Shown here: piece by piece, positions 1,963 through 21,061 of the stretch
Layout of the letters: each line of letters starts with the position of its first letter
How positions within the stretch are numbered: the stretch's first letter is position 1
IMG/VR virus record: IMGVR_UViG_3300020042_009419
Location: 1-22,741 of that record
Strand: one strand, 5' to 3'
From: a virus
Taxonomy: Duplodnaviria; Heunggongvirae; Uroviricota; Caudoviricetes
DNA: 22,741 bases
Program-made: the position numbers and the translations under genes
The notes under the pieces: generated by a model
Databases searched by the model: none
What the model saw: only the letters and a program-made list of their open reading frames with translations
What the model was told of the DNA's origin: nothing

Positions 1963-3057
1963 ATGAGTTATTTGTTTACAAGTGAATCGGTGTCAGAAGG
2001 GCACCCAGATAAGATTGCAGATGCAATCAGCGATACAGTACTAGATCTTGTGATGGCCAAACAGGATTCTGCACTAAGATGTGCATGCGAAACCTTGGTA
2101 ACTACCAATCGTGTGGTGATTGCTGGAGAATACAAAGGTGTATTACAGTCTGAAGATGTTGATGTTGCTGTGCGAAGTGTTATTAAAGAAATTGGATATG
2201 AGCAATCGGGATTTGATTGGCGCACAGTAGAAATCACAAACTTGCTACATGGGCAAAGTGCTGACATTGCACTTGGCACAGATTCGTTTGGTGCCGGAGA
2301 TCAAGGCCTGATGTTTGGGTATGCCTGTAATGAAACTGCAAATTATATGCCCGCAGCCATTTACTGGAGCCATCGCATTGTTGAACAACTGACAGAAGTG
2401 CGCAAAACTCAGGTGGTTGATTGGCTAGGACCTGACGCTAAATCACAAGTCACATTTGAATATCATGATGACGGCACACCTGTACGTATAGCCAAGATCG
2501 TGTGCAGTACTCAACACAGTGATTTGGTGGATATTGATCATGTTCGACTAACAGTGAAAAATATTATTCTTGGTATATTGCCTACAAAATACATTGATAA
2601 TTCCACAGAGTTTTATATCAATCCCACAGGACGCTTTGTCATTGGCGGACCCGATGGGGATACAGGATTAACTGGACGCAAAATTATTGTGGACACATAC
2701 GGTGGATCTTGCCCACACGGTGGCGGCGCTTTTAGTGGCAAAGACCCCACCAAGGTAGATCGCAGTGCAGCCTACATGATGCGTTATCTTGCCAAGAATA
2801 TTGTGGCCAGCGGCCAGGCCACCCGTGCCACATGTCAGATCAGTTATGCAATTGGAGTTGAGCAACCCATGAGCTTTTATGTACAAAGTGATGGCAATAG
2901 TCAAGCAATTACTGATTGGGTACAAAACAATGTGGACCTAACCCCTGCAGGAATTATCAAGAGATTTGATTTGTTCCGTCCAATTTATGGATCAACTACC
3001 AATTATGGACACTTTGGCAAAGACTATTTGCCGTGGGAAAAACTAGACCTGATCTAA
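1963..3057 (+). CDS. metK: S-adenosylmethionine synthetase
   Basis: Signature motifs FTSESVSEGHPDK, GAGDQG, GRFVIGGP.GDTGLTGRKIIVDTYGG, HGGGAFSGKDPTKVDRSAAY, YGHFG; AAGGA upstream. Confidence 0.97.
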   Translation: MSYLFTSESVSEGHPDKIADAISDTVLDLVMAKQDSALRCACETLVTTNRVVIAGEYKGVLQSEDVDVAVRSVIKEIGYEQSGFDWRTVEITNLLHGQSADIALGTDSFGAGDQGLMFGYACNETANYMPAAIYWSHRIVEQLTEVRKTQVVDWLGPDAKSQVTFEYHDDGTPVRIAKIVCSTQHSDLVDIDHVRLTVKNIILGILPTKYIDNSTEFYINPTGRFVIGGPDGDTGLTGRKIIVDTYGGSCPHGGGAFSGKDPTKVDRSAAYMMRYLAKNIVASGQATRATCQISYAIGVEQPMSFYVQSDGNSQAITDWVQNNVDLTPAGIIKRFDLFRPIYGSTTNYGHFGKDYLPWEKLDLI

Positions 3058-3065
3058 TCAGTGTT

Positions 3066-3071
3066 TAAATA
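3066..3071 (+). promoter_or_regulatory. Putative T4-type late promoter core (TAAATA) 5 nt before the ATG at 3077
   Basis: TAAATA lies in the 19-nt intergenic gap and matches the core of the T4 late consensus TATAAATA; the same TAAATA-N5-ATG geometry occurs at 10497-10484 on the minus strand. Confidence 0.55.
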
Positions 3072-3076
3072 CAAGT

Positions 3077-3835
3077 ATGAAAATTGTACTTGTAACTGGG
3101 GGATTTGATCCCTTACACTCTGGACATATCTCCTATCTAGCAGCAGCCCGCCAACTTGGTGATCGGCTGGTAGTGGGAGTAAATTCTGACTCATGGTTGA
3201 GCCGTAAAAAAGGTCGACCGTTTATGCCTGCAGTTGAGCGTGTGGCAGTGATAGAAAATCTACGCATGGTAGATCACTGTATCCTGTTCAACGACGATGA
3301 CGGATCCGGAATTGAAGCCATACGCAATGTGCAGATGTTGTATCCCAAGGATGAAATCATCTTTGCCAACGGCGGTGATCGCACAGCAGTCAATATTCCT
3401 GAAATGGTGGTGCAAGATGTGGTTTTCAAATTCGGAGTAGGCGGCGACGATAAACAGAATAGTAGCAGCTGGATTCTGGAAGAGTGGAAAGCCCCAAAGA
3501 CTCAACGAGCCTGGGGCTACTATCGTGTGCTGCACGAAGTTGATAACCATGTCAAACTCAAAGAACTTACTGTGATGCCGGGTCAGCGACTCAGTATGCA
3601 ACGACACTCAAGTCGTGCAGAGTTCTGGTTTGTGGCCCAAGGTGAAGCCACTGTTTACACAGTGGATCCTCACAGCACTGAATATGAGTTGATGGCAAGT
3701 CCTGCACGGCATCAATCCACCTGGATAAAATTAAATGAGTGGCACCAGTTGTGCAACGAAACTGATCAACCGCTAAAACTGATTGAAATACAGTACGGCG
3801 AAAACTGCGCAGAAACGGACATAGAACGAAAATGA
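3077..3835 (+). CDS. HxGH nucleotidyltransferase (TagD/RfaE-like) fused to a type II phosphomannose isomerase-like cupin domain
   Basis: N-terminal VTGGFDPLHSGH, VVGVNSD, ANGGDR; C-terminal RAWGYYRVL, KELTVMPGQRLSMQRH, HQLCN, IEIQYG, TDIER. Confidence 0.85.
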   Translation: MKIVLVTGGFDPLHSGHISYLAAARQLGDRLVVGVNSDSWLSRKKGRPFMPAVERVAVIENLRMVDHCILFNDDDGSGIEAIRNVQMLYPKDEIIFANGGDRTAVNIPEMVVQDVVFKFGVGGDDKQNSSSWILEEWKAPKTQRAWGYYRVLHEVDNHVKLKELTVMPGQRLSMQRHSSRAEFWFVAQGEATVYTVDPHSTEYELMASPARHQSTWIKLNEWHQLCNETDQPLKLIEIQYGENCAETDIERK

Positions 3836-4524
3836 CAAACATCATACCAGTTTTTGTGGGCTACGATCCCAGAGAAGCCATAGCATATCATGTGTGCGTG
3901 AACTCAATAATTAGACACGCCAGTCAACCAGTCAGCATTATTCCCTTGGCTCTAAATCTGTTCCGCGACTACACAGAAACACACACAGATGGCAGCAATC
4001 AGTTTATCTACAGTCGTTTCCTGGTACCGCACCTGATGAACTACACCGGGCATGCTATCTTCATAGATGGTGACATGATTGTGCGTGGAGACATTGCTGA
4101 ATTGTGGAACCTGCGTAATGCTGCACAAGATGTGCAAGTGGTCAAACATGATTATCAAACACGCATGAGTGAAAAATACCTAGGATCAAAAAATGAAAAC
4201 TATCCTCGCAAGAATTGGAGTAGTGTTATTTTGTGGAATTGTAATAGCTTTCCTAACCGGCGACTTACTCCCGAGTTTGTCCAACGAGCCACAGGTGCCG
4301 AGCTACACCGTTTCTCGTGGATAGATGATGCTCGCATTGGCGAACTACCTAAAGAATGGAATTGGTTGGATGTGGAATACGAATGGAACCCAATGGCAAA
4401 ACTGGTTCATTACACACTGGGAACTCCTTGCTTCCATGAGTTTGCTGATCAAGGTGACTTTTCGGATGAGTGGCATCGAGAGCGTATCTTTACAGAATAC
4501 TGTCAACAGCGTGATATAAAATGA
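3832..4524 (+). CDS. GT-A fold glycosyltransferase, GT8-like / plant CDI-like
   Basis: IPVFVGYDPRE, FIYSRFLVP, DxD motif FIDGDM, YPRKNWSSVILWN, LHRFSW, LVHYTLGTP. Confidence 0.8.
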   Translation: MTNIIPVFVGYDPREAIAYHVCVNSIIRHASQPVSIIPLALNLFRDYTETHTDGSNQFIYSRFLVPHLMNYTGHAIFIDGDMIVRGDIAELWNLRNAAQDVQVVKHDYQTRMSEKYLGSKNENYPRKNWSSVILWNCNSFPNRRLTPEFVQRATGAELHRFSWIDDARIGELPKEWNWLDVEYEWNPMAKLVHYTLGTPCFHEFADQGDFSDEWHRERIFTEYCQQRDIK

Positions 4525-5510
4525 TCGATCAAGAACCATTGGATGATGACTGGGTAGAATCGCCTGCACCACCGGTGCCTTTGAGCATATTTGATCAAGC
4601 ACCACCGGACGTCACAGTACTGTTCGAAAACATTCTGAAATACCGTGTGGACCCGGCAGGACTGGTGTATGGTATTACCTTGCCGCTGCTGACACAACAA
4701 CTGGCTGCATTGCCTGTCAACAACATAGTGAGTACCGACAGTGAATACAGATACGAAAGAAAAGGTCACATGTACGATCCCATACTACAAAGTTTTGTGC
4801 AAGGTGCTGGTGGTCAAATCAGCAGCTGGAGTCGAGAAGAATTCACAGCCACTCCGGTGGTACTGCGTGGCATTACCAAACGCAAGCAAATGCAGGCCTG
4901 TAAAGATGCCGGCCGCGATTTTTACTACATTGACACAGGATATTTTGGCAACGGTAAGAAAAAAACGTTTCATCGCATTACTCGAAATGATGTACAATGG
5001 TTTGGTGACATTGTGGAACGACCCGGAGACAGATTTAGCAATACTGGGGTGCAAATTAAAAAAATGCGAAGAGGAACAAATATCCTGATTGCTCCGCCCA
5101 GTCAAAAACTTCTGAACAACTATGATATTGTGCTAGAAGAGTGGTTGGCCAATGTACAAGAAGAAATCAAAAAGTATTCTGATCGCCCTGTGGTGATTCG
5201 CGCCAAACAAGGTCGTAGTACCAGGGTCAACGATGACACCATGGAAATGGCCCTGGATCGTGATGTACACTGTTTGGTCACGTTTAGTAGTATTGCAGCT
5301 GGAGAAGCTCTGTTGTACGGTAAACCGGCTATCACACTAGGTCCCAACGCCGCCGGACCCTTGTGCAGTCAAAGTCTCAGCGCAATTGAAAATCCACGTA
5401 TTCCCAGTCTAGATGAAGTCACAGCCTGGGCACATCATTTGGCCTATTGTCAGTTTACTGAACTGGAGATGCGTGATGGCACAGCATGGCGGATCCTGAA
5501 CAATGGTTGA
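4521..5510 (+). CDS. Capsule-polysaccharide-synthesis (KpsS-like) putative glycosyltransferase, paralog 1
   Basis: YYIDTGYFG, NILIAPP, DRPVVIR, VHCLVTFSSIAAGEALLYGKP, WAHHLAYCQF; the motif series is shared with three other ORFs in the cluster. Confidence 0.6.
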   Translation: MIDQEPLDDDWVESPAPPVPLSIFDQAPPDVTVLFENILKYRVDPAGLVYGITLPLLTQQLAALPVNNIVSTDSEYRYERKGHMYDPILQSFVQGAGGQISSWSREEFTATPVVLRGITKRKQMQACKDAGRDFYYIDTGYFGNGKKKTFHRITRNDVQWFGDIVERPGDRFSNTGVQIKKMRRGTNILIAPPSQKLLNNYDIVLEEWLANVQEEIKKYSDRPVVIRAKQGRSTRVNDDTMEMALDRDVHCLVTFSSIAAGEALLYGKPAITLGPNAAGPLCSQSLSAIENPRIPSLDEVTAWAHHLAYCQFTELEMRDGTAWRILNNG

Positions 5511-6426
5511 TGTGGTTGTGTATGCATCCAGTGTGGCCAATGCACACAAACATGAGCGCAAGGTAGCATGCCTTGAAAATTTTGCTCAAGGTGTACGAGC
5601 TCTTGGACACAGTGTGGTTGTGGACTGGGACTATAGATACCAGCCCGCAAAGCTGGCAGTGATGCTGGGCTGGGCCACAACAAACACAGGTGGCAGAAAT
5701 ATCACACTGCGAAAACAAGTCATCGCTGAACAACAAAGACATGGGTTTCGTACCATGTGCATTGATGCCAGTTGCTTCAAGTACCTGGACAACTCAGGCA
5801 CATATCTTCGATACAGTCTTGGCGGCCCGTTTTATGATCGTGCCGAGTATGCTAACCGTAACAGTGATTCCACCAAGTGGCAAGAGATACAGCATCAGCT
5901 GGGCATCACAATGCGTCCAACTCGATTCCGTGATGGCTATATTCTAATAGGCATGCAACGTGATGGTGGATTTAGTATGAAAACTTTGAGTCCATTGGCC
6001 TGGCTGGTCAACAAAATTCAAGAAATACGAAAGTACACCACACGAGAGATTGTGATACGACCACATCCTGGCAAGTTCGACATGGCAGATTTTACCAAGT
6101 TTCAACACAAAGAATATGTCAGACAACATGTGCGGGTGATAAATCCACTTGAATCAACTCTGCTGGAGAATTTACAATTGGCCCATGCAGCAGTATTTTT
6201 CAACAGCAGTGCCAGTGTTGCTGCTGTGCTAGAAGGTGTGCCGGTCTGGGTGGATGATGCCAGTGCAGTCACCTGGGCAGTAGCACATCATGACATGAGC
6301 ACTATTGAATCGCCGCAACAGTTTAGCACAGGCCAGTGGATACATGATCTAGCAACAGCACACTGGAGTGACCAGGATGGCAAAGCTGGTCTCATTTATC
6401 AAAAGTTTATGCCTTTTCTACAATAA
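5503..6426 (+). CDS. KpsS-like putative glycosyltransferase, paralog 2
   Basis: ILIGMQ, REIVIRPHP, HAAVFFNSSASVAAVLEGVPV, WIHDLA; 8-nt overlap with the upstream gene. Confidence 0.6.
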   Translation: MVDVVVYASSVANAHKHERKVACLENFAQGVRALGHSVVVDWDYRYQPAKLAVMLGWATTNTGGRNITLRKQVIAEQQRHGFRTMCIDASCFKYLDNSGTYLRYSLGGPFYDRAEYANRNSDSTKWQEIQHQLGITMRPTRFRDGYILIGMQRDGGFSMKTLSPLAWLVNKIQEIRKYTTREIVIRPHPGKFDMADFTKFQHKEYVRQHVRVINPLESTLLENLQLAHAAVFFNSSASVAAVLEGVPVWVDDASAVTWAVAHHDMSTIESPQQFSTGQWIHDLATAHWSDQDGKAGLIYQKFMPFLQ

Positions 6427-6967
6427 TATCGTAGTTGTGTCCCACAACGTTGGGCCACTTGTGACTTTTGTCAAACACAGAGATCTCTTGTGACACAATG
6501 GTGATATCCATGTTGGCAAGTAATTGTTCTCGCCACCATGCGGGTGACTCCACAATCAAGTGAGCATTACGGCCATCTGGTAGATGTTTTTTTGCAGGAT
6601 AACAGGCAATTCTAAACCAACCTGCAACGATCATCTTGTTGCTGATCATGTGTAATGTTTCCGCTAGATGGTTGGGCTCAATGTGTTCAAACACATCTGC
6701 ACTGACCACAGCATCAAATGATCTTTTTGGCACACAATTATGATCAGCGTTACCCGGATCATAACCTTCCACACGCATGTCAGGATAGGCCTGTTGTATG
6801 CTAGTCATCAGAGCACCGTGTCCGCATCCAAAGTCTAACACACTGGTGGGTTGATACTGTGTGAGGAATGGTTGTATTTTACCAAAAATTTTGCTACCTC
6901 TAACAAATTGTCCCTTGCTGTGCATTTCAGACAATTGGGCTTGATATGTTTTATCTATTATGGTCAT
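6407..6967 (-). CDS. Class I SAM-dependent methyltransferase
   Basis: VLDFGCGHG, GYDPG, FDAVVSADVFEHIEP, PAKKHLPDGRNAH. Confidence 0.85.
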   Translation of the reverse strand: MTIIDKTYQAQLSEMHSKGQFVRGSKIFGKIQPFLTQYQPTSVLDFGCGHGALMTSIQQAYPDMRVEGYDPGNADHNCVPKRSFDAVVSADVFEHIEPNHLAETLHMISNKMIVAGWFRIACYPAKKHLPDGRNAHLIVESPAWWREQLLANMDITIVSQEISVFDKSHKWPNVVGHNYDIIVEKA

Positions 6968-7617
6968 TGATAAATTGCCTCCACGTATTGGTATTTGCCG
7001 CTCCAGCTATCTGGAACATCTTTCCAGTGACCATTTAACTGATCATCCATCCACTCAGGATAGTGTGAGCGATCCTTGAACCACCAGAACAGATCACTGC
7101 TGCTCCAGTTCTTGAAGTATCTCTGAAAGAATTCACGTGTTCTTGGCTCACGAAAGTGCTCAGGATCATACATGGTTTTTTTGCCCTTGGCAGGACGCTG
7201 AAAATTCAAGCCAACAAAACAAAACTTAGCAGCGTATGATTCCAGCTGTGCTGCAACCCAATTCAAATCATCGTCTGGAATACTGTTCAGCACCTGTGTG
7301 CAAATAACACCGTCAAACTTTGTGCCTGCAGGTGGTGGTGTTTCTAATCCTGCCACACAAGGATCATACCGATACACACTAACACCCAGGTAAGCATCAA
7401 ACGTTTGCCAATTGTGTTCTCCAGCATAGGGTAGCGGTTCAGTGTATTGCTGTCCCTTGCCGCAGCCGTAATCAAGTATGGTTTGCGCACCATAGTGATC
7501 CACTAGGTCCTTGACACAATTTTGATATTTGACCACATCATAGCCTGCCCAACTTTTGTTGCTCTCCTGGAACTCACGACCTAGACGAACTGATTCTGCA
7601 TAGTACGCACTTGTCAT
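6964..7617 (-). CDS. Class I SAM-dependent methyltransferase (paralog of 6407-6967)
   Basis: ILDYGCGKG, YRYDP, FDGVICTQVL; 4-nt overlaps at both ends. Confidence 0.8.
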   Translation of the reverse strand: MTSAYYAESVRLGREFQESNKSWAGYDVVKYQNCVKDLVDHYGAQTILDYGCGKGQQYTEPLPYAGEHNWQTFDAYLGVSVYRYDPCVAGLETPPPAGTKFDGVICTQVLNSIPDDDLNWVAAQLESYAAKFCFVGLNFQRPAKGKKTMYDPEHFREPRTREFFQRYFKNWSSSDLFWWFKDRSHYPEWMDDQLNGHWKDVPDSWSGKYQYVEAIYQ

Positions 7618-8249
7618 AGCAACTTGATCTCTACTGTGGCACGTTTTTTACCCCCAGCGTTTGAAACAACATTCACAACTTCAAACCCATCTACACCAAT
7701 GTAGTTTGTTGCTGTGCCCTTGCATCTAATGTCCAAGATGATTCTGGTATTCTTGTGCGAATGTTTTTTCATCAACTCTATGTAGGTTTTTACAGGATAG
7801 TGATGTCCGCAACTGAGCCATGATGTGATAACATCAAATTTAACATCACTGGGTATGTTGATGTTGTTGGCATCTACTAGATGGTAGTTCTTTGTGCCTA
7901 GTTCTTGTAGTTTGGCATCCAAGAAATCAAATGTGTGATAAAACTTTAGTTCACTGGGATCAGTGTTCCAGTTGCCGTAACTGGCAGTGTCAGATTTGGT
8001 AGCGTTGGTACTAGCGTCACCATCCAACAACCAAAGTTCTGTACCGTATTTTTCATTAAACCATCGGCTTTGCCACGCAAAGCCACAGCCAATGTCCAAC
8101 AGTCGCCCTATGGGTTGATTGAGATAAGCATCTACTATCTCAAAACTTGCTCGATGTTTGGCAATATATCTATCCTTGGTCCATTTAACAGCCCATGCCG
8201 CAGAATCTTTGGCACCCTTATCAATATTGTCAGTTGTGTTTAGTTCCAT
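7614..8249 (-). CDS. Class I SAM-dependent methyltransferase
   Basis: LLDIGCG, LWLLDG, FDVITSWLSCGHHYP. Start placed at the ATG at 8249 (MELNTT), overlapping the upstream stop by 10 nt, instead of the track's 8261. Confidence 0.75.
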   Translation of the reverse strand: MELNTTDNIDKGAKDSAAWAVKWTKDRYIAKHRASFEIVDAYLNQPIGRLLDIGCGFAWQSRWFNEKYGTELWLLDGDASTNATKSDTASYGNWNTDPSELKFYHTFDFLDAKLQELGTKNYHLVDANNINIPSDVKFDVITSWLSCGHHYPVKTYIELMKKHSHKNTRIILDIRCKGTATNYIGVDGFEVVNVVSNAGGKKRATVEIKLL

Positions 8250-8890
8250 CCCATAATCCAATCATCTCTAATTTGATCTAGCTTGATCATGCCCCATTCT
8301 TTCAACAGGCCAACAGCCGCAAACTGGCCGTATTGTTTGCTGTAAGCATCATGTGGTTTTTGTTCTATTACCACAACAGGTCTGCAACGTCGAATAGTTT
8401 GTTCCGCACCTTGCAGTATGCGATACTCGTATCCTTCGCAGTCAATTTTGATATAGTTTATGTCATGCAAGTTTAGATTGTCAAGCCGAACCACTTGCAC
8501 ATCGCCTGCGCCCATGGTAGCAGGGTCAAGATGACTGTGCCCCGAATTGTCTTCGGTAATGATCATGGTTCCCATGGTGTCCTGATCGCCCAGCGCAATG
8601 GGACGAACTTCAAAGTTTTCCCCGGTTACATTGCGTTCAAGACATTCTCTAAACACAGCAACAGGTTCAAAGGCAATCACACGGGCAAAACTTTTCACAA
8701 GGTCACGACTCCATAAACCCACGTTGGCACCAATGTCTAGTGCCACATCTCGTTGAGTGCATAATTCAATACTGCGTTGTCGCACAGCAATTTGATATTC
8801 AGCTGGTAGACCTTTGTCTACACTTTTCTTCAACATCCGTGGTAAGTGTGTTTCGAAGTCGGGAAATTGCCATCCATAGTGTTCACGCAT
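8240..8890 (-). CDS. FkbM-family methyltransferase
   Basis: VALDIGANVGLW, VIAFEP, VRLDNL, IKIDCEGYEYRILQGA, PVVVIE. Confidence 0.9.
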   Translation of the reverse strand: MREHYGWQFPDFETHLPRMLKKSVDKGLPAEYQIAVRQRSIELCTQRDVALDIGANVGLWSRDLVKSFARVIAFEPVAVFRECLERNVTGENFEVRPIALGDQDTMGTMIITEDNSGHSHLDPATMGAGDVQVVRLDNLNLHDINYIKIDCEGYEYRILQGAEQTIRRCRPVVVIEQKPHDAYSKQYGQFAAVGLLKEWGMIKLDQIRDDWIMGWN

Positions 8891-9686
8891 TTTGAGTCTC
8901 CTTGAGTATTGCGGCTGCGGTGCCGTCAGCTAGTTCTGTGGTATGGAACTGTCCGTACGCCAAATGGCAAGCCCAGGCATGACGTTCGTCATCTGTGGGA
9001 AACCATGGCGTTTCTATTTTTTCTAGATCTAAATTGCTCACAGGTCTAGCAGCATTGGCAGGTGCTGTGACAAACACAGGCACACCAGCCAAGATACATT
9101 CAGTTGCGGCAGAACTGTTGAATGTGACCACAGCATGTACATCCATGAGCCAGTCTTCGGCTCGTTGTGTTTTACGATCCCAGCGAGATGCCGGTCGTTC
9201 TCGCACTAGGATGGGTCTATCTGTGTGTTGTTTCAGTGTGTGAATAGTTGTCTGCATCCACTCATCCAGTGTGATGCCGTAAAAACTGCAGGGCTTCTCG
9301 TCGGGTGCAACCAGCAGGATGTTGCGACTGTGACGTTGTTCAGGACGCATGGCGATGCCTAGTCGTTGCCAACGATCTGCCGGCCTGGCAACAACAGTAC
9401 TGTGTTGTAGATCATTCAGCACAACTCTGTGCCAGAATTTCCAGCCATTGGGATTGTCGGGTCCGGGTCTATTGCCCAGGTATCCAGTGTCCATGTAGTA
9501 GAAGTCACGAGTGTCTTGCCAGCACCGCTTGATAATCTTGTGCTTCATGATACCTCGCAACACCAATGGGTCTGTGCTGTCTTCGTACTGCCATGTTTCT
9601 AAACAAGTGGGAATTGCACCTGATCCATGAGCAAACATTTCAATGTACTCGTCACTGTTGTTTTTGTTTAGAAATATCCAGGTCAT
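8883..9686 (-). CDS. KpsS-like putative glycosyltransferase, paralog 3 (closest to 4521-5510)
   Basis: LVLRGI, DFYYMDTGYLGN, NILLVAP, TDRPILVRE, VHAVVTFNSSAATECILAGVPV, WACHLAYGQF, DGTA. Confidence 0.6.
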   Translation of the reverse strand: MTWIFLNKNNSDEYIEMFAHGSGAIPTCLETWQYEDSTDPLVLRGIMKHKIIKRCWQDTRDFYYMDTGYLGNRPGPDNPNGWKFWHRVVLNDLQHSTVVARPADRWQRLGIAMRPEQRHSRNILLVAPDEKPCSFYGITLDEWMQTTIHTLKQHTDRPILVRERPASRWDRKTQRAEDWLMDVHAVVTFNSSAATECILAGVPVFVTAPANAARPVSNLDLEKIETPWFPTDDERHAWACHLAYGQFHTTELADGTAAAILKETQNA

Positions 9687-10486
9687 TGCCAGTACGCTTC
9701 TGTACGTGGAACCTTAAGGTCTGCTCTTCGGCTGCGCCCTAGATCTTTTCTAGCACCTTTGAGATGGTCTAGATATGCGCCCCAGTCTGAGTTGATCAGC
9801 GGATGACCTTCACCAGTGATCAAATCACCGCTCCAGTCCAGTTCTTTTAATGCGCATTGAGTTCTCACATGATCAAACACAAAACTGTCGTGCCATTCTG
9901 CCAGAGTAAAGATACCGGTCTCTGCATGATCATATACCGTTTGAAATTTTTGTAGAAAGTCTTGGGTAGCAGTACTGGCCAATTTCATTGCATACAATCC
10001 ACATTCGGTGTATTTGCCACGACGGCCCAAGAAACAAAGATCCTGAGATGCTGGGCATAACCGATCAAGGTCGGCTACAGTAACAGGACTATGGCAAACA
10101 GTATCGGCATCCATCCACAACAACCAATCAGTTTGCGTGTGTTTAGCACAATGGAAAATACTGTAGACCTTGTGAGAAAAGCGCACAGCGTCCCATTTGA
10201 ATCCTTTGCCTGAATCCTTGCGGCGTGCTCGAGCAGGATCGGCACTGACATCGCCATTGGCCTTGGGCACATCTCGCCACTGAGCTTTGAATGCCGCTAG
10301 TTCGGGACTTGCTGCCACAAGATCATGCACTGTCAAATTGGCCGCAGATTCGGTTACAGTACAGTTTTCAGCATACACAATCAGGTCTACTTCGGCAGGC
10401 CAAGTTTGCAAAAAGGTCTGGATCATGCGATGTCCGTATTTCTCGTAGCCAGCGGCATTAAAAGTGGTAACTACACAGTATCTCAT
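9683..10486 (-). CDS. GT-A fold nucleotide-diphospho-sugar transferase-like protein
   Basis: YCVVTTFN, DAVRFSHKVY, DxD motif LLWMDADTV, ECG, WHDSFVFD, YLDHLKG. Start placed at the ATG at 10486 (MRYCVV), 5 nt after TAAATA. Confidence 0.7.
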   Translation of the reverse strand: MRYCVVTTFNAAGYEKYGHRMIQTFLQTWPAEVDLIVYAENCTVTESAANLTVHDLVAASPELAAFKAQWRDVPKANGDVSADPARARRKDSGKGFKWDAVRFSHKVYSIFHCAKHTQTDWLLWMDADTVCHSPVTVADLDRLCPASQDLCFLGRRGKYTECGLYAMKLASTATQDFLQKFQTVYDHAETGIFTLAEWHDSFVFDHVRTQCALKELDWSGDLITGEGHPLINSDWGAYLDHLKGARKDLGRSRRADLKVPRTEAYWQ

Positions 10487-10491
10487 AAGTG

Positions 10492-10497
10492 TATTTA
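10492..10497 (-). promoter_or_regulatory. Putative T4-type late promoter core (TAAATA) 5 nt before the ATG at 10486
   Basis: Minus strand reads gTAAATAcacttATG at the head of the six-gene inverted operon. Confidence 0.55.
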
Positions 10498-10499
10498 CA

Positions 10500-11348
10500 G
10501 TGATAAAAAACATCGCATATTTTCCGGCTCAATGCGCCCAAAACTCGGGACCTGTCATGGGGGCAGTACTAGATAGTCTGCAGGCTCGTGGAATACAAAC
10601 ACAAGAAAACTCCATGAATTCAGATGCAGTGGTCATATGGAGTGTGCTGTGGCACGGACGTATGGCCCAAAATCAACAGGTATATCAGCACTATCGTGCG
10701 CAGGGAAAATCTGTGATAGTGATTGAAGTTGGTGCGTTGTATCGTGGTCGCACCTGGAAACTGGCGGTGAACAATGTGACAAGTCAAGGCTATTATGGGC
10801 ACGAAACCAATCTTGATCTGGACCGTCCAAGAAAACTAGGCACCAGTCTAGCAGTCAATCACAGTGCAAACCCTGCTGTACTGATAGCAGCACAGCACAA
10901 TCGCAGTCATCAACTGAACGGAGTAAACCAAGAAGCCTGGATCACAGATACTATCCGTGAGTTGCGCAAGCACACTGACAGACCAATTCATGTACGGTCG
11001 CATCCTAGGTCTGCGTTGCAATGGAATCGATTACCGTCTGACATAGTACCGGTTCGGCCAGCACGACTGAGCAACACCTACGACGGTTTTGACATGCATT
11101 TTGATTATCATGCTGTGGTCAACTACAACTCAGGACCGGGAATCCAAGCAGCTATTTCGGGCACAAGACCCATAGTAAATACTACCAGTCTAGCATATCC
11201 AGTTGCTCATGCAATAGCACAGATTGACCAACCCTACTTGATCAATCGAGATCAATGGCTGATAGAAATATGTCATACTGAATACACTGTGGAAGAATTA
11301 CAAAAGGGCCTATGGCTAAAAAGAATAGAACCAGCACTGACGGCATAG
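10500..11348 (+). CDS. KpsS-like putative glycosyltransferase, paralog 4
   Basis: VIVIEVG, VLIAAQH, TDRPIHVRSHP, YHAVVNYNSGPGIQAAISG, QWLIEICHTEY. Start placed at GTG 10500 to avoid overlap with the divergent gene; the exact start is uncertain. Confidence 0.6.
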   Translation: MIKNIAYFPAQCAQNSGPVMGAVLDSLQARGIQTQENSMNSDAVVIWSVLWHGRMAQNQQVYQHYRAQGKSVIVIEVGALYRGRTWKLAVNNVTSQGYYGHETNLDLDRPRKLGTSLAVNHSANPAVLIAAQHNRSHQLNGVNQEAWITDTIRELRKHTDRPIHVRSHPRSALQWNRLPSDIVPVRPARLSNTYDGFDMHFDYHAVVNYNSGPGIQAAISGTRPIVNTTSLAYPVAHAIAQIDQPYLINRDQWLIEICHTEYTVEELQKGLWLKRIEPALTA

Positions 11349-12049
11349 TTGATTGTGCCTGTGTGATACACAGCACCGGATATGATTGGCAGTATGTGGA
11401 ACGACTCTACAACATGCTGGTGCGTGTGTTCCCTCATGGCATACGCATGCATGTGTACACCGAGCATGACAGATCAGTTCCGCCACACATGATCAAACAT
11501 GTGCTGGATGACTGGGGCATGGGCGGTCCCAAAAAGTCCTGGTGGTACAAGATGCAGTTGTTCAATCCTGAGCACTTTGCCGGAGACCTGTTGTATCTTG
11601 ATCTTGATGTGGTGGTGGCACGTGAACTGGACTGGGTCACGGCCCTGAACACCAGTTACTTCTGGGGCATACGGGACTTTAGATATCTGCAACGACAGAA
11701 CTCAACCACACTCAACTCCAGCATGATGTGGTGGAATGTGTCCAAGTTTTCTTGGATCTGGAACGATCTTTTGACCAAAGACATTCGGCAAGTGGCCAAG
11801 CAGTTTCCCGGAGATCAAGATTATCTAGGTCATGTGCTGGATGTAAATCAACGTAGATTCTTTGAGGACAAGCGTGTGGAAAGCTACCGCTGGCAATGCC
11901 TGGATGGCGGATTTGACTTTCAGCGCCGATTGCATCGCCGCCCTGGTGCCGGAGTTGCCATTGCCAACGATACTGCCCTGGTGGTTTTTCACGGACTCCC
12001 CAAACCGCATCAGGTCACAGATCCCACCATTGCTGAACTTTGGCGCTGA
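11312..12049 (+). CDS. GT-A fold glycosyltransferase (GT8-like)
   Basis: CACVIHSTGYDWQYVERL, WWYKMQLF, DxD motif LYLDLDVVV, NSSMMWW, GDQDYL, VVFHGLPKP. Confidence 0.8.
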   Translation: MAKKNRTSTDGIVDCACVIHSTGYDWQYVERLYNMLVRVFPHGIRMHVYTEHDRSVPPHMIKHVLDDWGMGGPKKSWWYKMQLFNPEHFAGDLLYLDLDVVVARELDWVTALNTSYFWGIRDFRYLQRQNSTTLNSSMMWWNVSKFSWIWNDLLTKDIRQVAKQFPGDQDYLGHVLDVNQRRFFEDKRVESYRWQCLDGGFDFQRRLHRRPGAGVAIANDTALVVFHGLPKPHQVTDPTIAELWR

Positions 12050-12050
12050 A

Positions 12051-12079
12051 TTGACCTTTATTGCTCAAAATGCTATAAT
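12051..12079 (+). promoter_or_regulatory. sigma70-type early promoter P1
   Basis: TTGACC-17 bp-TATAAT with extended -10 TG. Confidence 0.9.
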
Positions 12080-16686: not shown

Positions 16687-18152
16687 AACAATGCACCATA
16701 GTAATTCGAGATGAAGTCAACATCAAGATAGAAGGACTTGATCTGGATTGCCGCAAGGCTCTGGTTAATGCTTTCAAGTATGAGAATCCAGCGGCACGTT
16801 ATCTGCCCGCGGTTCGACTGGGAAGGTGGGACGGCAAGATTGCCTACTTTCAACTAGGTGGCAGCACCTATGTAAATCTCTTGCCCGAGATCATGCCCAT
16901 ACTTGACAAGTTTGATTATAGTCCGGTGCTGGATGATCAACGTGAGTACACTACGGTGTTTGACTTTGCAGCAGTGTCTGAAAATCATTACAGTCATGTG
17001 CTATGGCCTAAAACCCATCCAGCAGCAGGCGAGCCCATGGTGCTGCGTGACTATCAGGTGGAGATCATCAACAAGTTCCTGACCAATCCGCAGTGCATAC
17101 AAGAAGTGGCCACAGGTGCAGGCAAGACCATTATCACAGCAGCCTTGAGTGATGCAGTCAGTGCCTATGGTCGTTCAATTGTGATTGTGCCCAACAAGAG
17201 TCTGGTAACGCAGACCGAGCAAGACTACATCAACATGGGTCTGGATGTGGGTGTGTATTTTGGCGACAGAAAAGAATACAATCGTCAGCATACCATATGC
17301 ACCTGGCAGAGTCTCAACAACATGATGAAGCTGACCAAGACTGGCGAAGCAGAAATAACCATTCATGAGTTTATACAAGATGTGGTGTGTGTGATTGTGG
17401 ACGAAGTTCATATGGCCAAGGCTGATGCACTCAAGACCCTGCTGACCGGAGCCATGAGTCAGATTCCCTTAAGATGGGGGCTGACCGGGACAGTGCCAAA
17501 AGAACTGTTTGAAAGCCAGGCCCTGTTGGTCAGCCTAGGTCCAGTGGTCAGTCGACTCAGTGCCAGTACCTTGCAAGACGCAGGTGTGCTAGCACAGTGC
17601 CATGTGAACATTGTGCAACTGGTGGATCATGTGGAATACGCTGACTATCAAAGCGAGCTCAAATATCTGCTGGAGGAGTCTGGACGCTTGGACACCATGG
17701 CTGAACTGATACGCAAGGTAAACGAAACAGGCAATACTCTGGTGTTGGTAGACAGGACTGAATGTGGACGACAACTGGTAGAACGCCTAGGTAACAAAGC
17801 AGTGTTTGTGTCAGGCGCTACCAAGTCAAAAACCCGCCAGGACGAATACAACCTGGTGGCCGATGCCACAGACAAGATCATTGTGGCCACCTATGGTGTG
17901 GCTGCTGTGGGTATCAACATACCACGCATCTTTAATCTTGTGCTGGTGGAACCGGGCAAGAGCTTTGTGCGTGTGATACAGAGTATTGGACGTGGTATTA
18001 GAAAAGCCGAAGACAAGGATCATGTGGAAATCTGGGATATCACCAGCACATGCAAGTTTGCCAAGCGTCACCTGACCAAGCGCAAGGCCTTTTATAAGGA
18101 AGCCAACTATCCATTCTCAGCAGAGAAACTAGAGTGGATGAAGATCAAATAA
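16683..18152 (+). CDS. uvsW: SF2 DNA helicase, T4 UvsW type
   Basis: LRDYQ, ATGAGKT, DEVH, GLTGT, VATYGVAAVGINI, QSIGRGIR, IWDI. Confidence 0.9.
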   Translation: MKQCTIVIRDEVNIKIEGLDLDCRKALVNAFKYENPAARYLPAVRLGRWDGKIAYFQLGGSTYVNLLPEIMPILDKFDYSPVLDDQREYTTVFDFAAVSENHYSHVLWPKTHPAAGEPMVLRDYQVEIINKFLTNPQCIQEVATGAGKTIITAALSDAVSAYGRSIVIVPNKSLVTQTEQDYINMGLDVGVYFGDRKEYNRQHTICTWQSLNNMMKLTKTGEAEITIHEFIQDVVCVIVDEVHMAKADALKTLLTGAMSQIPLRWGLTGTVPKELFESQALLVSLGPVVSRLSASTLQDAGVLAQCHVNIVQLVDHVEYADYQSELKYLLEESGRLDTMAELIRKVNETGNTLVLVDRTECGRQLVERLGNKAVFVSGATKSKTRQDEYNLVADATDKIIVATYGVAAVGINIPRIFNLVLVEPGKSFVRVIQSIGRGIRKAEDKDHVEIWDITSTCKFAKRHLTKRKAFYKEANYPFSAEKLEWMKIK

Positions 18153-19054
18153 TGGGCACAGATTTTCTAGTAGACGATGGAGTGTTTATGCCCATGCTAA
18201 ACGATACCGGACGAAATCAATTTTATAAACAAGCATTAGATCGCGCCGCAGCAGGTCAAGTGGTTTGTGACATTGGTGCTGGCACTGGGTTTTTGAGTGT
18301 GCTGGCGTTACAAGCAGGTGCGTCACATGTGATTGCTGTAGAGCGGGATCCGGGTAGATTTGCATACTTGAATCAGACTATAAAAAATCTAGAACTTGAA
18401 GATAAAATAGAAACCCACTGTGTTGATTTCTTAGACAGTGATATCCAAGCTGATGTTTATGTCAGTGAAACAATCAACACACAGATATTTGGCGAGGATA
18501 TGGCTCGACTCAGTAATCATGTTGCACATCGTGGCGGCCAATTTATACCCGCCGGGGTTAGAATCTGGGCTGAAGTCTACACTGATCATCCGGTGTTTGT
18601 GCTGGACCTAACGCACAATGAATCTTACGAGTTTGACCCAGGAATTGGTATAGATTCAGAATTTGTCAACAGCGTCAACTTGGACTTTCAACAGCAATAC
18701 AATTTACAACAAACTGTGTTCAAGGCCAATCAGTTCACCCGACTGTTTACCATGCTTGATCGTTTTACAGATCTAAGGCTGAACAAGATTGGTGAAACTA
18801 CTCCAATCACTGTGAATTTTAATCATCACAACAACGAAAGCAACATTGAAATTGTGATACCCAACAGCCAGGTACCCATGGGAATGCCAATGGTAGTGTT
18901 GAAATGGGAAATGTTTTATCAAGATATTGTACTGCACAGCAACAAGTGCTGGTTTGGCAATGTCGCCAAAAATATACGTGATCAGTTTCGCACAGGCAAT
19001 GACATTGTGTTTCGTTATGATCCTGCAATACGCAACTGGAGATTGAGCTACTAG
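18152..19054 (+). CDS. PRMT-like (protein arginine methyltransferase-like) SAM methyltransferase
   Basis: Start at 18152 (TAATG coupling to uvsW); MLND.GRN.FY, VCDIGAGTGFLS, VIAVE, double-E loop VSETINTQIFGE, GGQFIP. Confidence 0.65.
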   Translation: MGTDFLVDDGVFMPMLNDTGRNQFYKQALDRAAAGQVVCDIGAGTGFLSVLALQAGASHVIAVERDPGRFAYLNQTIKNLELEDKIETHCVDFLDSDIQADVYVSETINTQIFGEDMARLSNHVAHRGGQFIPAGVRIWAEVYTDHPVFVLDLTHNESYEFDPGIGIDSEFVNSVNLDFQQQYNLQQTVFKANQFTRLFTMLDRFTDLRLNKIGETTPITVNFNHHNNESNIEIVIPNSQVPMGMPMVVLKWEMFYQDIVLHSNKCWFGNVAKNIRDQFRTGNDIVFRYDPAIRNWRLSY

Positions 19055-19056
19055 GC

Positions 19057-19085
19057 TTGACTTTTCTTCTAATATAAATTATAAT
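19057..19085 (+). promoter_or_regulatory. sigma70-type promoter, probably producing a leaderless mRNA
   Basis: TTGACT-17 bp-TATAAT; ATG 6 nt downstream with no SD; a late-like TATAAAT is nested at 19073-19079. Confidence 0.75.
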
Positions 19086-19091
19086 ACTACT

Positions 19092-19592
19092 ATGCGAATA
19101 TTAACATTAGACAATACATTTTATGACTTGAATCATCTACCTGAAGAAGTGGATGACATGCGATTTGCTATCCTAGACAATAGTAATCCACAAGACCCGG
19201 ACTATCACTTTATTCCGCTGATATTCCTGGAAAGTTTCAACAGTCCTGCACTAGTCTTGCGCATTGGCAACACCACAATCAAGATGCCCATGGACTGGCA
19301 AATACTCATAGGTGAACCAGATGTGGGCGACCTAGAGGTGTTACCACTCACCAGCATCAATGATCGTGGCTTCAAGGTGTTTCAATTCAATCCACTAACC
19401 AGTTTCCGTCCCAGCTTTCCGGACATTGAAATACTGGATGTGTACCATGAAGTAACATGGTTTGCACCCAAACTCAAGAATGGGCAGATGCTGGCCGTGC
19501 CGCTAAACGATGATGCAGAACCTGACTGTGTGTATTTTGTAAAAGACGTCAGCCGCAACTGCGAAATAGTTGACTACAACAAGGCCTGGTAG
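19092..19592 (+). CDS. Hypothetical beta-rich protein (166 aa), possible degenerate Hint fold
   Basis: Clean ORF with its own promoter; pattern resembles Hint blocks but lacks the catalytic residues. The fold is inferred. Confidence 0.8.
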   Translation: MRILTLDNTFYDLNHLPEEVDDMRFAILDNSNPQDPDYHFIPLIFLESFNSPALVLRIGNTTIKMPMDWQILIGEPDVGDLEVLPLTSINDRGFKVFQFNPLTSFRPSFPDIEILDVYHEVTWFAPKLKNGQMLAVPLNDDAEPDCVYFVKDVSRNCEIVDYNKAW

Positions 19593-19594
19593 AT

Positions 19595-19735
19595 ATGGCT
19601 TACACAGAACCTGAAGTATTTCGAACAATCAATCGACTGGCTAGACTGTATCTGGAAAGTTACCCCGATGACCGCGAAGGCCTGGAGCGATTCCTGCGTT
19701 GGGCACATGTTCAGTACGGGTATCAGTATGGGTAG
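19595..19735 (+). CDS. Small protein, 46 aa (MAYTEPEVFRTINRLARLYLESYPDDREGLERFLRWAHVQYGYQYG)
   Basis: Not in the ORF track; starts 2 nt after the upstream stop and overlaps the next ATG by 8 nt. Confidence 0.7.
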   Translation: MAYTEPEVFRTINRLARLYLESYPDDREGLERFLRWAHVQYGYQYG

Positions 19736-19988
19736 CCTTGTGCCTGGCGTGCCCTTGATCTACGAGCGTGTGGAAGGTACTGTGTACTCCAGACGTGTGG
19801 GCGAACTTGCTCGCACAGTGGTGGGACACGACCATGATCCCAGAACCAGTGATGGTAGACCCCTGTATGACCATTTGATGGAAGATAAAATGTGGGGCGA
19901 GATTCGGCGAACGGCAAAAACCAATCCCACTTTACAAGACGCTCTAGAACGTGCTATAATGATTTATCAACTGAGCAAGACCACATGA
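19728..19988 (+). CDS. Hypothetical protein (86 aa)
   Basis: Start moved to ATG 19728 (MGSLVPG), coupled to the 46-aa ORF; 4-nt overlap with the radical SAM gene. Confidence 0.75.
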   Translation: MGSLVPGVPLIYERVEGTVYSRRVGELARTVVGHDHDPRTSDGRPLYDHLMEDKMWGEIRRTAKTNPTLQDALERAIMIYQLSKTT

Positions 19989-21061
19989 GTACTGTGCATT
20001 GTAAGGCGCCGTGGGTTAGTGTTAGTTACATGCCTGGCGGTAAGTTTGCTCCTTGTTGTCAATGGTCCGGAGATCTGTTCGACACACAAGAACACATGAT
20101 TGATCATGTAGGCGGTGCTTTTCTGCGTGGTGAGATCCCAAAAGAATGTTCAAGTTGCCCGCCAGGACCTGACCGAAGTTGGCGATCAACGTTTGAACCA
20201 TACCATACTGATTATCAAACCAGCAGTATACAATTCTTAGATTTTAGAAACAATAACTTGTGCAATCTAAAGTGTCGCAGTTGCGGCCCGTTGTTTAGTA
20301 CCAGCTGGAGTTCAGAAGCCGGGCGTGAGATTATCAATGACTATGATTCAACTACTCTGGACAACATTGATCTAAGTCAATGCAAAATGGTGTACTTTGC
20401 TGGCGGCGAGCCCTTGATGAATCCACAGCATTATGAAGTTCTAAAAAGATTGATTGCACAAAGGGCCAGACCTATTCTGATGTACAGCAGTAACTTTACA
20501 GTGACTGGATATAAAGATCAAAAAGTGGCAGATCTATGGCAACACTTTGATGACATTCGCTTGCATGCTAGTATTGATGCTGTGGGCAAATATGCAGAAA
20601 TTGTGCGCAGCGGTACGGACTGGTCCACTGTAGAAGACAATCTTGCATGGGCACAGAAATTGTCCAATGTTGAACTCAAAATTGCACCAGTAATCAGTGC
20701 TATCAATATTTGGTGGATCAAAGATCTGCTGGACTATTTTGATTGGGTAGAGCCTGCTAATTTTCAACCAGTATTGGCCAATGCTGACGGTATATGGGGA
20801 ATTGGGTGTATCCCTACCAAATATCGTGAACCATTGATTGCTGCACTTGACCAATCAAAGTTTCGAGATCATGTCAACATGCAACGAGCTATAAAGATTT
20901 TGTCTGACCCTCTATTGACCAATCACTGGTATCAATTTTTAACACAGCAACTGGTACTGGATAATTATCGTAAAGAGCATTGGTTTGATAATGTACCTAT
21001 CAAGCACAACATCTATGCTGAATCATTACAAATGGAATCTTGGGTGAAACAACATGAGTGA
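19985..21061 (+). CDS. Radical SAM protein with an N-terminal SPASM/twitch-like Cys cluster
   Basis: CNLKCRSC (CxxxCxxC), YFAGGEPL, SIDA; N-terminal CKAPW...APCC...CSSC; start moved to ATG 19985. Confidence 0.88.
   Translation: MSTVHCKAPWVSVSYMPGGKFAPCCQWSGDLFDTQEHMIDHVGGAFLRGEIPKECSSCPPGPDRSWRSTFEPYHTDYQTSSIQFLDFRNNNLCNLKCRSCGPLFSTSWSSEAGREIINDYDSTTLDNIDLSQCKMVYFAGGEPLMNPQHYEVLKRLIAQRARPILMYSSNFTVTGYKDQKVADLWQHFDDIRLHASIDAVGKYAEIVRSGTDWSTVEDNLAWAQKLSNVELKIAPVISAINIWWIKDLLDYFDWVEPANFQPVLANADGIWGIGCIPTKYREPLIAALDQSKFRDHVNMQRAIKILSDPLLTNHWYQFLTQQLVLDNYRKEHWFDNVPIKHNIYAESLQMESWVKQHE

Follow-up and report, generated by a model that had tools for sequence, protein, structure and literature searches.

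A block of 12 closely packed consecutive genes spans positions 3077–12049 of a 22,741-bp window of viral DNA and encodes a putative glycan-building and glycan-methylating pathway. This window opens a 94.2-kb viral contig (IMG/VR record IMGVR_UViG_3300020042_009419), of which it forms the first 22.7 kb. The contig is 27% complete by CheckV, which implies a genome of jumbo size. Its source is an uncultured freshwater giant phage. Four of the genes encode paralogs predicted to share the fold of retaining beta-Kdo transferases (Kdo: 3-deoxy-D-manno-octulosonate) without the Asp nucleophile of those enzymes. The block is read as a late-expressed, cytoplasmic glycan assembly line with virion proteins as its most likely acceptor, at a probability of about 0.42. 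A wider claim is offered tentatively and is open to considerable doubt. It is that the paralogs belong to a large, nearly all-viral and uncharacterised glycosyltransferase (GT) family of nucleophile-less, probably inverting, cytidine-nucleotide-dependent ulosonic-acid transferases, which, with conserved GT-A and methyltransferase partners, would decorate the virions of abundant aquatic phages of Gram-negative hosts with a methylated glycan containing Kdo.

The genes and operon heads of the block, with the adjoining MetK gene, are as follows (SAM, S-adenosylmethionine; PMI, phosphomannose isomerase).

1963–3057, plus strand: MetK, S-adenosylmethionine synthetase; three S-AdoMet_synt domains, E 2e-32 to 5e-57
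3066–3079, plus strand: plus-strand operon head, late-promoter-like; TAAATA, 5 bases, ATG
3077–3835, plus strand: HIGH-type nucleotidyltransferase (RfaE domain II/TagD-like) fused to a PMI-type cupin; PF01467, PF01050, TIGR02199
3832–4524, plus strand: GT8-family GT-A glycosyltransferase with DGD motif; PF01501, 35.5 bits against a cut-off of 24.3
4521–5510, plus strand: paralog A, predicted beta-Kdo-transferase-like fold, type 2; QxxxD lacks its Gln and RxHP its His
5503–6426, plus strand: paralog B, predicted beta-Kdo-transferase-like fold, type 1; Gln kept, RPHP, no Asp nucleophile
6407–6967, minus strand: class I SAM methyltransferase 1; PF13489, 41.9 bits; motif I VLDFGCGHG
6964–7617, minus strand: class I SAM methyltransferase 2; phrog_24759 "methyltransferase", E 4.8e-13; motif I ILDYGCGKG
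7614–8261, minus strand: class I SAM methyltransferase 3; PF13489, 24.6 bits, under its cut-off; phrog_22502, E 3.2e-5; motif I LLDIGCGFA
8240–8890, minus strand: FkbM-family methyltransferase; PF05050, 70.8 bits, and TIGR01444, 95.7 bits, both above cut-offs
8883–9686, minus strand: paralog C, predicted beta-Kdo-transferase-like fold, type 2; AlphaFold and Foldseek (the paralog modelled)
9683–10486, minus strand: GT-A glycosyltransferase with WMDAD motif, leading the minus-strand operon; AlphaFold and Foldseek
10484–10497, minus strand: minus-strand operon head, late-promoter-like; TAAATA, 5 bases, ATG
10500–11348, plus strand: paralog D, type 1; Gln kept, RSHP, no Asp nucleophile; GTG start
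11312–12049, plus strand: third GT-A-type glycosyltransferase, FDLD motif; phrog_1962 "glycosyltransferase", E 5.5e-21

Paralog family

The four paralogs share 22–42% pairwise identity and match no family in Pfam, NCBIfam or PHROGs. PF05159 (Capsule_synth) has no match anywhere in the contig at E values up to 10. In one neighbouring Atlas cluster, 10% of members have PF05159; this is a lead only. A profile search of 1.84 billion cluster representatives returned 4,245 relatives with E values of 0.001 or less, and the Atlas neighbours of the family are 94–100% viral. Some family proteins carry a fused N-terminal GT8 domain (P0004, P0012, P0024).

A profile built from 58 family sequences matched WbbB (E 1e-3) and KpsC in the PDB, through a segment holding the HP motif and an NS...EA...G motif. 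The AlphaFold model of paralog C has a pLDDT (predicted local distance difference test) of 95.3, and its top 18 Foldseek matches were all KpsC, KrkA or WbbB. VIA-align gave Z scores of 9.4–12.0 for KpsC, WbbB and KrkA over 210–238 of 267 residues, and of at most 8.4 for generic GT-B proteins. The model thus predicts a modified form of the GT-B fold in which the N-terminal domain is reduced, of the retaining beta-Kdo transferase type. An earlier reading of the window, made from the sequence only, had called the paralogs KpsS-like. The likeness holds at the level of the fold (Foldseek, VIA) and fails for the PF05159 match and the Asp nucleophile, which are both absent.

Retaining beta-Kdo transferases are defined by QXXXD, in which Asp is the covalent nucleophile, by (K/R)XHP, which binds cytidine monophosphate (CMP), and by a general-base Glu (PMC12887879). 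Alignment of the family with KpsC-N of Escherichia coli CFT073 using hhalign (E 1.3e-4) placed KpsC Q156 on a family Gln and D160 on a family Ser, the nucleophile position being judged from sequence alignment rather than structure superposition. Across the 58 sequences, the Gln column holds Gln in 41 and Pro in 17, and the His column of the HP motif holds His in 41, Lys in 14 and Arg in 3. RxHP retains its Arg in 57 of 58 sequences and the NS motif its Ser in 56 of 58, and the N-domain Glu/Asp is nearly invariant. This Arg and Ser are assigned to CMP binding in the retaining enzymes (PMC12887879). Conservation of the nucleotide-binding residues points to cytidine-nucleotide donors, and loss of the Asp nucleophile points to a mechanism that has no covalent intermediate. 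Judged from these alignments, the paralogs probably transfer by direct displacement, forming no covalent enzyme-sugar intermediate.

The paralogs fall into two sequence types. Both the Gln and RxHP are present in paralogs B and D (RPHP in B, RSHP in D) and missing from A and C (RAKQ in A, RERP in C). A role for type 2 as inactive partners of type 1 was considered and dropped, since Pelagibacter phage Mosig has type-2 members alone; type 2 is therefore not merely a partner subunit.

Operon heads

The hexamer TAAATA occurs four times over both strands of the window, and two copies lie exactly 5 bases ahead of the first ATG of each operon. The element resembles the T4 late promoter, TATAAATA. The plus-strand head has no Shine-Dalgarno sequence, which suggests an mRNA of leaderless type. 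This head is kept in at least 24 relatives, and in relatives that lack the nucleotidyltransferase-cupin the motif stands directly ahead of GT8. At the minus-strand head, TAAATA or TAAGTA lies in the same place in each of the relatives listed, about 40 of 73. The divergent starts of the minus-strand GT-A gene and paralog D are 13 bases apart (10484–10502) with TAAATA in the spacer, and this layout is conserved. The two genes are probably both leaderless, or have promoters inside each other's coding sequence. Two starts given in the sequence-only reading were revised. For the minus-strand GT-A gene, 10486 is likelier than 10513, its ATG being the one behind TAAATA-N5. Paralog D was corrected to a GTG at 10500; the equivalent codon in relatives is ATG in 38 and GTG in 17.

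A 342,865-base relative that is 99% complete (G001, comprising loci L082–L099) served as the whole-genome reference for absences and promoter counts. It has 18 TAAATA-N5-ATG sites, a leaderless class with no ribosome site. Sixteen of the 18 open a reading frame of at least 60 amino acids, against a background of 22% for any ATG, and other permutations of the hexamer give 1–9 sites. In a second class, TAAATA is followed by 8–14 bases, an AGGA ribosome site, about 7 bases and ATG. The two classes together head 51 of 382 predicted genes in G001. Among them are tail sheath (E 2e-205) and baseplate wedge (E 6e-283) genes, together with those for a spanin-like protein and several structural proteins of the virion. 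The structural genes were identified by PHROGs; Pfam Gp23 and Phage_sheath_1 missed them. The block shows no enrichment of sigma-70-like sites, and the single strong site lies at 12051, just past its end. The late-type motifs that the sequence-only reading had noticed at the operon heads are thus real and conserved. Their sharing with virion genes in G001 and their conservation in relatives make late expression of the cluster likely, as predicted from promoter sequence.

Plus-strand paralog B and minus-strand methyltransferase 1 are convergent, and their 3' ends share 20 bases (6407–6426), so a terminator cannot fit between the two operons.

Gene content

The block was first described as 12 consecutive genes comprising a nucleotidyltransferase-cupin, three DxD glycosyltransferases, four paralogs and four methyltransferases. 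That count and description are right, and gene families, fold and DxD motifs agree with a phage cluster that builds and methylates a glycan.

The open reading frame (ORF) at 3077–3835 matches PF01467 (CTP_transf_like, E 1.1e-14) and PF01050 (MannoseP_isomer cupin, E 2.4e-22). The best match of its N-terminal half is rfaE_dom_II, with TIGR02199 at E 6e-23, under its cut-off. Its relatives in the PDB are cytidylyltransferases, with likeness to glycerol-3-phosphate and ethanolamine-phosphate cytidylyltransferases. From these matches, the fusion protein probably makes one nucleoside diphosphate (NDP)-activated donor.

In the GT8 protein, D79 and D81 of the DGD motif are invariant in the alignment of relatives. 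The minus-strand GT-A protein (9683–10486) has no family match at sequence level. Its AlphaFold model has a moderate pLDDT of 71, and Foldseek matched it exclusively to retaining GT-A enzymes (probability 0.99, E about 1e-3): alpha-1,3-GalT, glycogenin, blood-group GTA/GTB and WrtF. D126 and D128 of its WMDAD motif are invariant in relatives. The third GT (11312–12049) has invariant D97 and D99 and a homolog in Mosig (E 4e-36). Single-sequence and profile searches of the PDB with the minus-strand GT-A and the third GT gave nothing useful. When the three GT-A families were compared with each other by hhalign, the DxD segment alone aligned (E 0.04, not significant).

The four methyltransferases each have motif I, with no detectable relatedness among them. 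Methyltransferase 1 is a homolog of gp130 of Caulobacter phage CcrColossus (E 1.7e-19), and the FkbM methyltransferase has homologs in Mosig (E 1e-19). Methyltransferase 3 is the least secure assignment of the block, and its start codon is uncertain. A membrane helix is absent from all 12 proteins, the highest 19-residue Kyte-Doolittle window being 1.38, which bears out the earlier remark that the block has no clear membrane protein. The proteins are mainly acidic or neutral.

Sugars and donors

No KdsB/NeuA-type CMP-sugar synthetase was found in the contig, G001 or 13 further related records, so CMP-activated donors must be made by the host. The nucleotidyltransferase-cupin and MetK are also missing from many relatives, and most donors would therefore come from the host. 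The cluster had been called self-contained, which these results contradict. The nucleotidyltransferase-cupin was considered as a CMP-Kdo synthetase; this was not adopted, since the products of its superfamily are pyrophosphate-linked and relatives can do without the gene.

A bona fide KdsA (Kdo-8-phosphate synthase) is encoded in one relative (L037:18947–19699, minus strand), between uvsY and the nucleotidyltransferase-cupin. It scores 371.9 bits against NF003543 (cut-off 242) and 356.8 bits against TIGR01362 (cut-off 314). It occupies the slot that MetK holds in this window. Both accessory genes at this uvsY-side slot supply precursors: MetK the SAM used in methylation, KdsA the Kdo-8-phosphate that goes toward the glycan. 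MetK, as methyl-donor supply, is functionally part of the block though accessory. KdsA at the head of the cluster in L037 is independent context evidence for Kdo, and Kdo is inferred to be a sugar of the glycan. A HAD domain fused to one member of the paralog family is not identifiable as a Kdo-8-phosphate phosphatase. A small WbuC-like cupin follows KdsA in L037 (17645–17998).

Conservation and occurrence in other phages

Each of the 19 long related loci has the block between uvsY and the AAA ATPase/helicase genes. Relatives nearly always keep the four paralogs, the GT-A genes and FkbM; MetK (present in only 8 fetched relatives), the nucleotidyltransferase-cupin and methyltransferases 1–3 are variable. 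By analogy, differing methyltransferase number and precursor-supply genes among close relatives would resemble the pattern of surface-antigen loci. GT8 and a paralog-A-like domain form one ORF in L064:13624–15282 (552 amino acids) and L037:16017–17648 (543 amino acids).

Megablast of the whole window against GenBank phages gave zero matches. A tblastn search of 50,697 phage records with paralogs C and D found only Caulobacter phages, Mosig and one podovirus. Mosig carries the module nearly whole: each of the three GT-A genes has a homolog there (E 1e-36 to 1e-70), along with two FkbM-like methyltransferases, two paralog-family members and a sulfotransferase. CcrColossus and its kin carry it in part, with two paralog-family members, a GT8 homolog, a methyltransferase homolog and an annotated sialyltransferase and GT9. 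The CcrColossus genes lie directly after a tail protein gene and ahead of the lysis cassette. In freshwater podovirus ct7QV12, genes for a paralog-family member, a TibC-like transferase and a methyltransferase lie just upstream of those for terminase, portal and capsid. The ct7QV12 family member (L102, MW202713.1, 4882–5619) is unannotated in GenBank and overlaps part of a coding sequence labelled "pyridoxal phosphate-dependent enzyme".

Acceptor

In the proposed mechanism, the assembly line would be expressed late and would act wholly in the cytoplasm. The three GT-A enzymes and the four beta-Kdo-transferase-fold enzymes would add sugars singly in turn. Donors would come mainly from the host pool, probably including CMP-Kdo, and one more would be activated by the phage nucleotidyltransferase-cupin. 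The four methyltransferases would O-methylate sugars of the product, and phage MetK would top up SAM. The chain would be built straight on a cytoplasmic acceptor, most likely virion structural proteins during particle assembly, giving a methylated, acidic glycan coat on the particle.

Near-complete relative G001 lacks an initiating phosphoglycosyltransferase, flippase, polymerase/ligase and exporter (PF02397, PF00953, PF01943, PF04932 and PF01061 absent), and its PF00005 results are P-loop matches below threshold only. Having no lipid-carrier or export route, the pathway would make its chain directly on a cytoplasmic or inner-leaflet acceptor. The late heads, together with structural-gene neighbours in other lineages, favour virion proteins, which we infer to be the acceptor. 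Virion decoration had already been proposed from the late-type motifs and from the block's lack of a flippase or ABC exporter, a lack that extends to G001. It stays the favoured reading, and the argument from lacking export genes is weak, since lipopolysaccharide (LPS) core enzymes are also soluble.

Several observations weigh against virion decoration. The Asp nucleophile is absent, with Ser in 41 of the 58 family sequences, no fixed residue elsewhere and no Asp in the four window paralogs, and RxHP is missing from paralogs A and C and both Mosig members. With these losses, some of the paralogs, or even every one, may use a donor other than CMP-Kdo. KdsA is rare (1 of 80 loci). Late timing is read from a sequence motif, not from expression data, and would also suit post-replicative DNA modification. 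The block here sits amid recombination and helicase genes (uvsX/uvsY; AAA ATPase, helicase), away from structural genes. Its families also resemble an LPS core or lipooligosaccharide locus (Kdo-type, GT8, heptose-type nucleotidyltransferase), whose enzymes are likewise soluble with host export.

That last resemblance makes a serious, if unlikely, rival of remodelling of a host envelope glycolipid at the inner membrane face, the substrate being lipid A-core, an undecaprenyl-linked unit or phosphatidylglycerol (as for KpsS/KpsC). Host exporters would carry the methylated product to the surface, where it would block superinfection or keep progeny off debris. Core-oligosaccharide enzymes are soluble and host-exported in the same way, phage export genes would be unneeded, and their absence fits. 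The LPS-core-like mix of Kdo-transferase-like fold, GT8 and heptose-type nucleotidyltransferase gains KdsA in one relative, and CcrColossus adds enzymes annotated GT9 and sialyltransferase. Similar cyanophage gene sets have been read as cell-wall modification genes (PMC12801897). However, late-type heads common to virion genes do not suit surface conversion, which is expected early, the proteins have no membrane anchor, and two other phage lineages have the module next to their tail or capsid genes. It is improbable that the product is soluble and bound to no macromolecule. Such a product, formed while the cell is infected, would be a methylated oligo- or polysaccharide of the cytoplasm or a small molecule bearing sugars, with the polymethylated polysaccharides of mycobacteria as an analogy; to our knowledge there is no phage precedent. 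An entirely soluble pathway, lacking export and carrier genes and having several distinct methyltransferases, suits such a product. It leaves the link to late and structural genes unexplained, and the block has no hydrolase or acyl-handling gene.

DNA hypermodification, raised as an alternative in the sequence-only reading, survives as a minor rival and is slightly more improbable still. A methylated oligosaccharide would be placed on a modified base before packaging and would evade host nucleases. The block is set among recombination and replication genes, and phage DNA glycosyltransferases attach Kdo and heptose to 5-hydroxymethylcytosine, the heptose pathway needing a cytidylyltransferase (bioRxiv 10.1101/2023.12.21.572611). 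Group transfer to DNA has been described as a late event (PMC13326640). However, PF00303 (ThyA), PF12851 (TET/JBP) and PF00145 (C5 DNA methylase) are absent from the contig and G001, the PF12851 search having no positive control above cut-off, so that the TET/JBP absence is weak evidence. The lack of a ThyA homolog, TET/JBP and C5 methylase leaves no known way to make a hydroxylated, glycosylatable base. The paralogs also match capsule and O-antigen enzymes, not T4 beta-glucosyltransferase, and the mostly acidic or neutral charge of the proteins does not favour a DNA substrate.

Comparison with known systems

Large phage glycan clusters that have no assigned target, and virion glycosylation in mycobacteriophages and chloroviruses, are already known. 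New here are a large viral family with the Kdo-transferase fold minus its nucleophile, a conserved multi-gene module found also in cultured phages, and the promoter and KdsA evidence.

The paralogs share with KpsC/KpsS (GT107), the WbbB N-domain (GT99) and KrkA (GT140) the same predicted modified GT-B fold over the whole protein. Also shared are a conserved acidic residue in an N-domain (L/I)E(V/I)G motif and the NS...EA...G.P nucleotide-binding segment, and in B and D the Gln of QxxxD and RxHP. Unlike those enzymes, the phage proteins lack the Asp nucleophile, A and C also lack the Gln and His, and the family is almost entirely viral with no Pfam Capsule_synth match.

Freeman and colleagues described glycosylation of mycobacteriophage virions in 2023 (summarised in PMC12619734). 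Soluble GTs encoded by the phages reportedly act there in the cytoplasm, with no export machinery. Soluble phage GTs without export genes are common to both systems, as is a late or structural context in some carriers of the module. The system described here differs in its Gram-negative hosts, its enzyme families and its far larger set of seven transferases and four methyltransferases. Its block does not adjoin capsid or tail genes, and it is known from genes alone. Chlorovirus PBCV-1 builds an O-methylated capsid glycan with its own cytoplasmic GTs and methyltransferases, independently of the host secretory machinery. The likeness of its virus-encoded GT and methyltransferase set is functional, not homologous; PBCV-1 is a giant virus of eukaryotes, its glycans are N-linked and it lacks a Kdo-transferase-like family.

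Large T4-like cyanophages S-SCSM2R, S-SCSM1 and P-SSM2 carry "cell wall synthesis and modification" sets with KdsA, KdsB and TagD, whose target is debated (PMC12801897). These are likewise large aquatic phages with many GTs plus precursor genes, whereas none of the three was among the tblastn matches of paralogs C and D. The DNA glycan hypermodification clusters of Pyle et al. have a neighbouring thymidylate-synthase homolog or C5-methylase/5mYOX pair (bioRxiv 10.1101/2023.12.21.572611). They resemble this block in sequential transferases, in Kdo and heptose among the sugars and in the cytidylyltransferase of the heptose pathway. They differ in that the ThyA homolog and C5-methylase/5mYOX pair are absent here.

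Relatives are very common in freshwater metagenomes; two cluster genes match 1,106 and 3,049 database proteins. If these phages give themselves, or their hosts, a new coat of methylated acidic glycan, consequences would follow for adsorption, grazing, aggregation and recognition, both in lakes and in oceans. The paralogs offer a natural test of the Kdo-transferase fold working without its Asp nucleophile. If the proposal is true, they would be mechanistically new, and the virion glycosylation system would be the first outside actinobacteriophages. Cultured phages of two model or important hosts, Caulobacter crescentus and Pelagibacter ubique, also carry the module, which puts the question within reach of experiment now.

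Flanking genes

From UvsX and UvsY the gene order runs through MetK and the cluster to an early-promoter cassette array, followed by AAA ATPase and helicase genes and then by methyltransferase and radical-SAM genes. A near-consensus sigma-70 promoter (12051–12079; 11/12, extended TG) stands directly past the end of the cluster, where the window switches to the early-gene cassette array. Past the helicase, positions 18134–21061 encode a 306-amino-acid methyltransferase and a radical-SAM enzyme. Given these further SAM-dependent genes, the use of MetK may extend beyond the glycan cluster.

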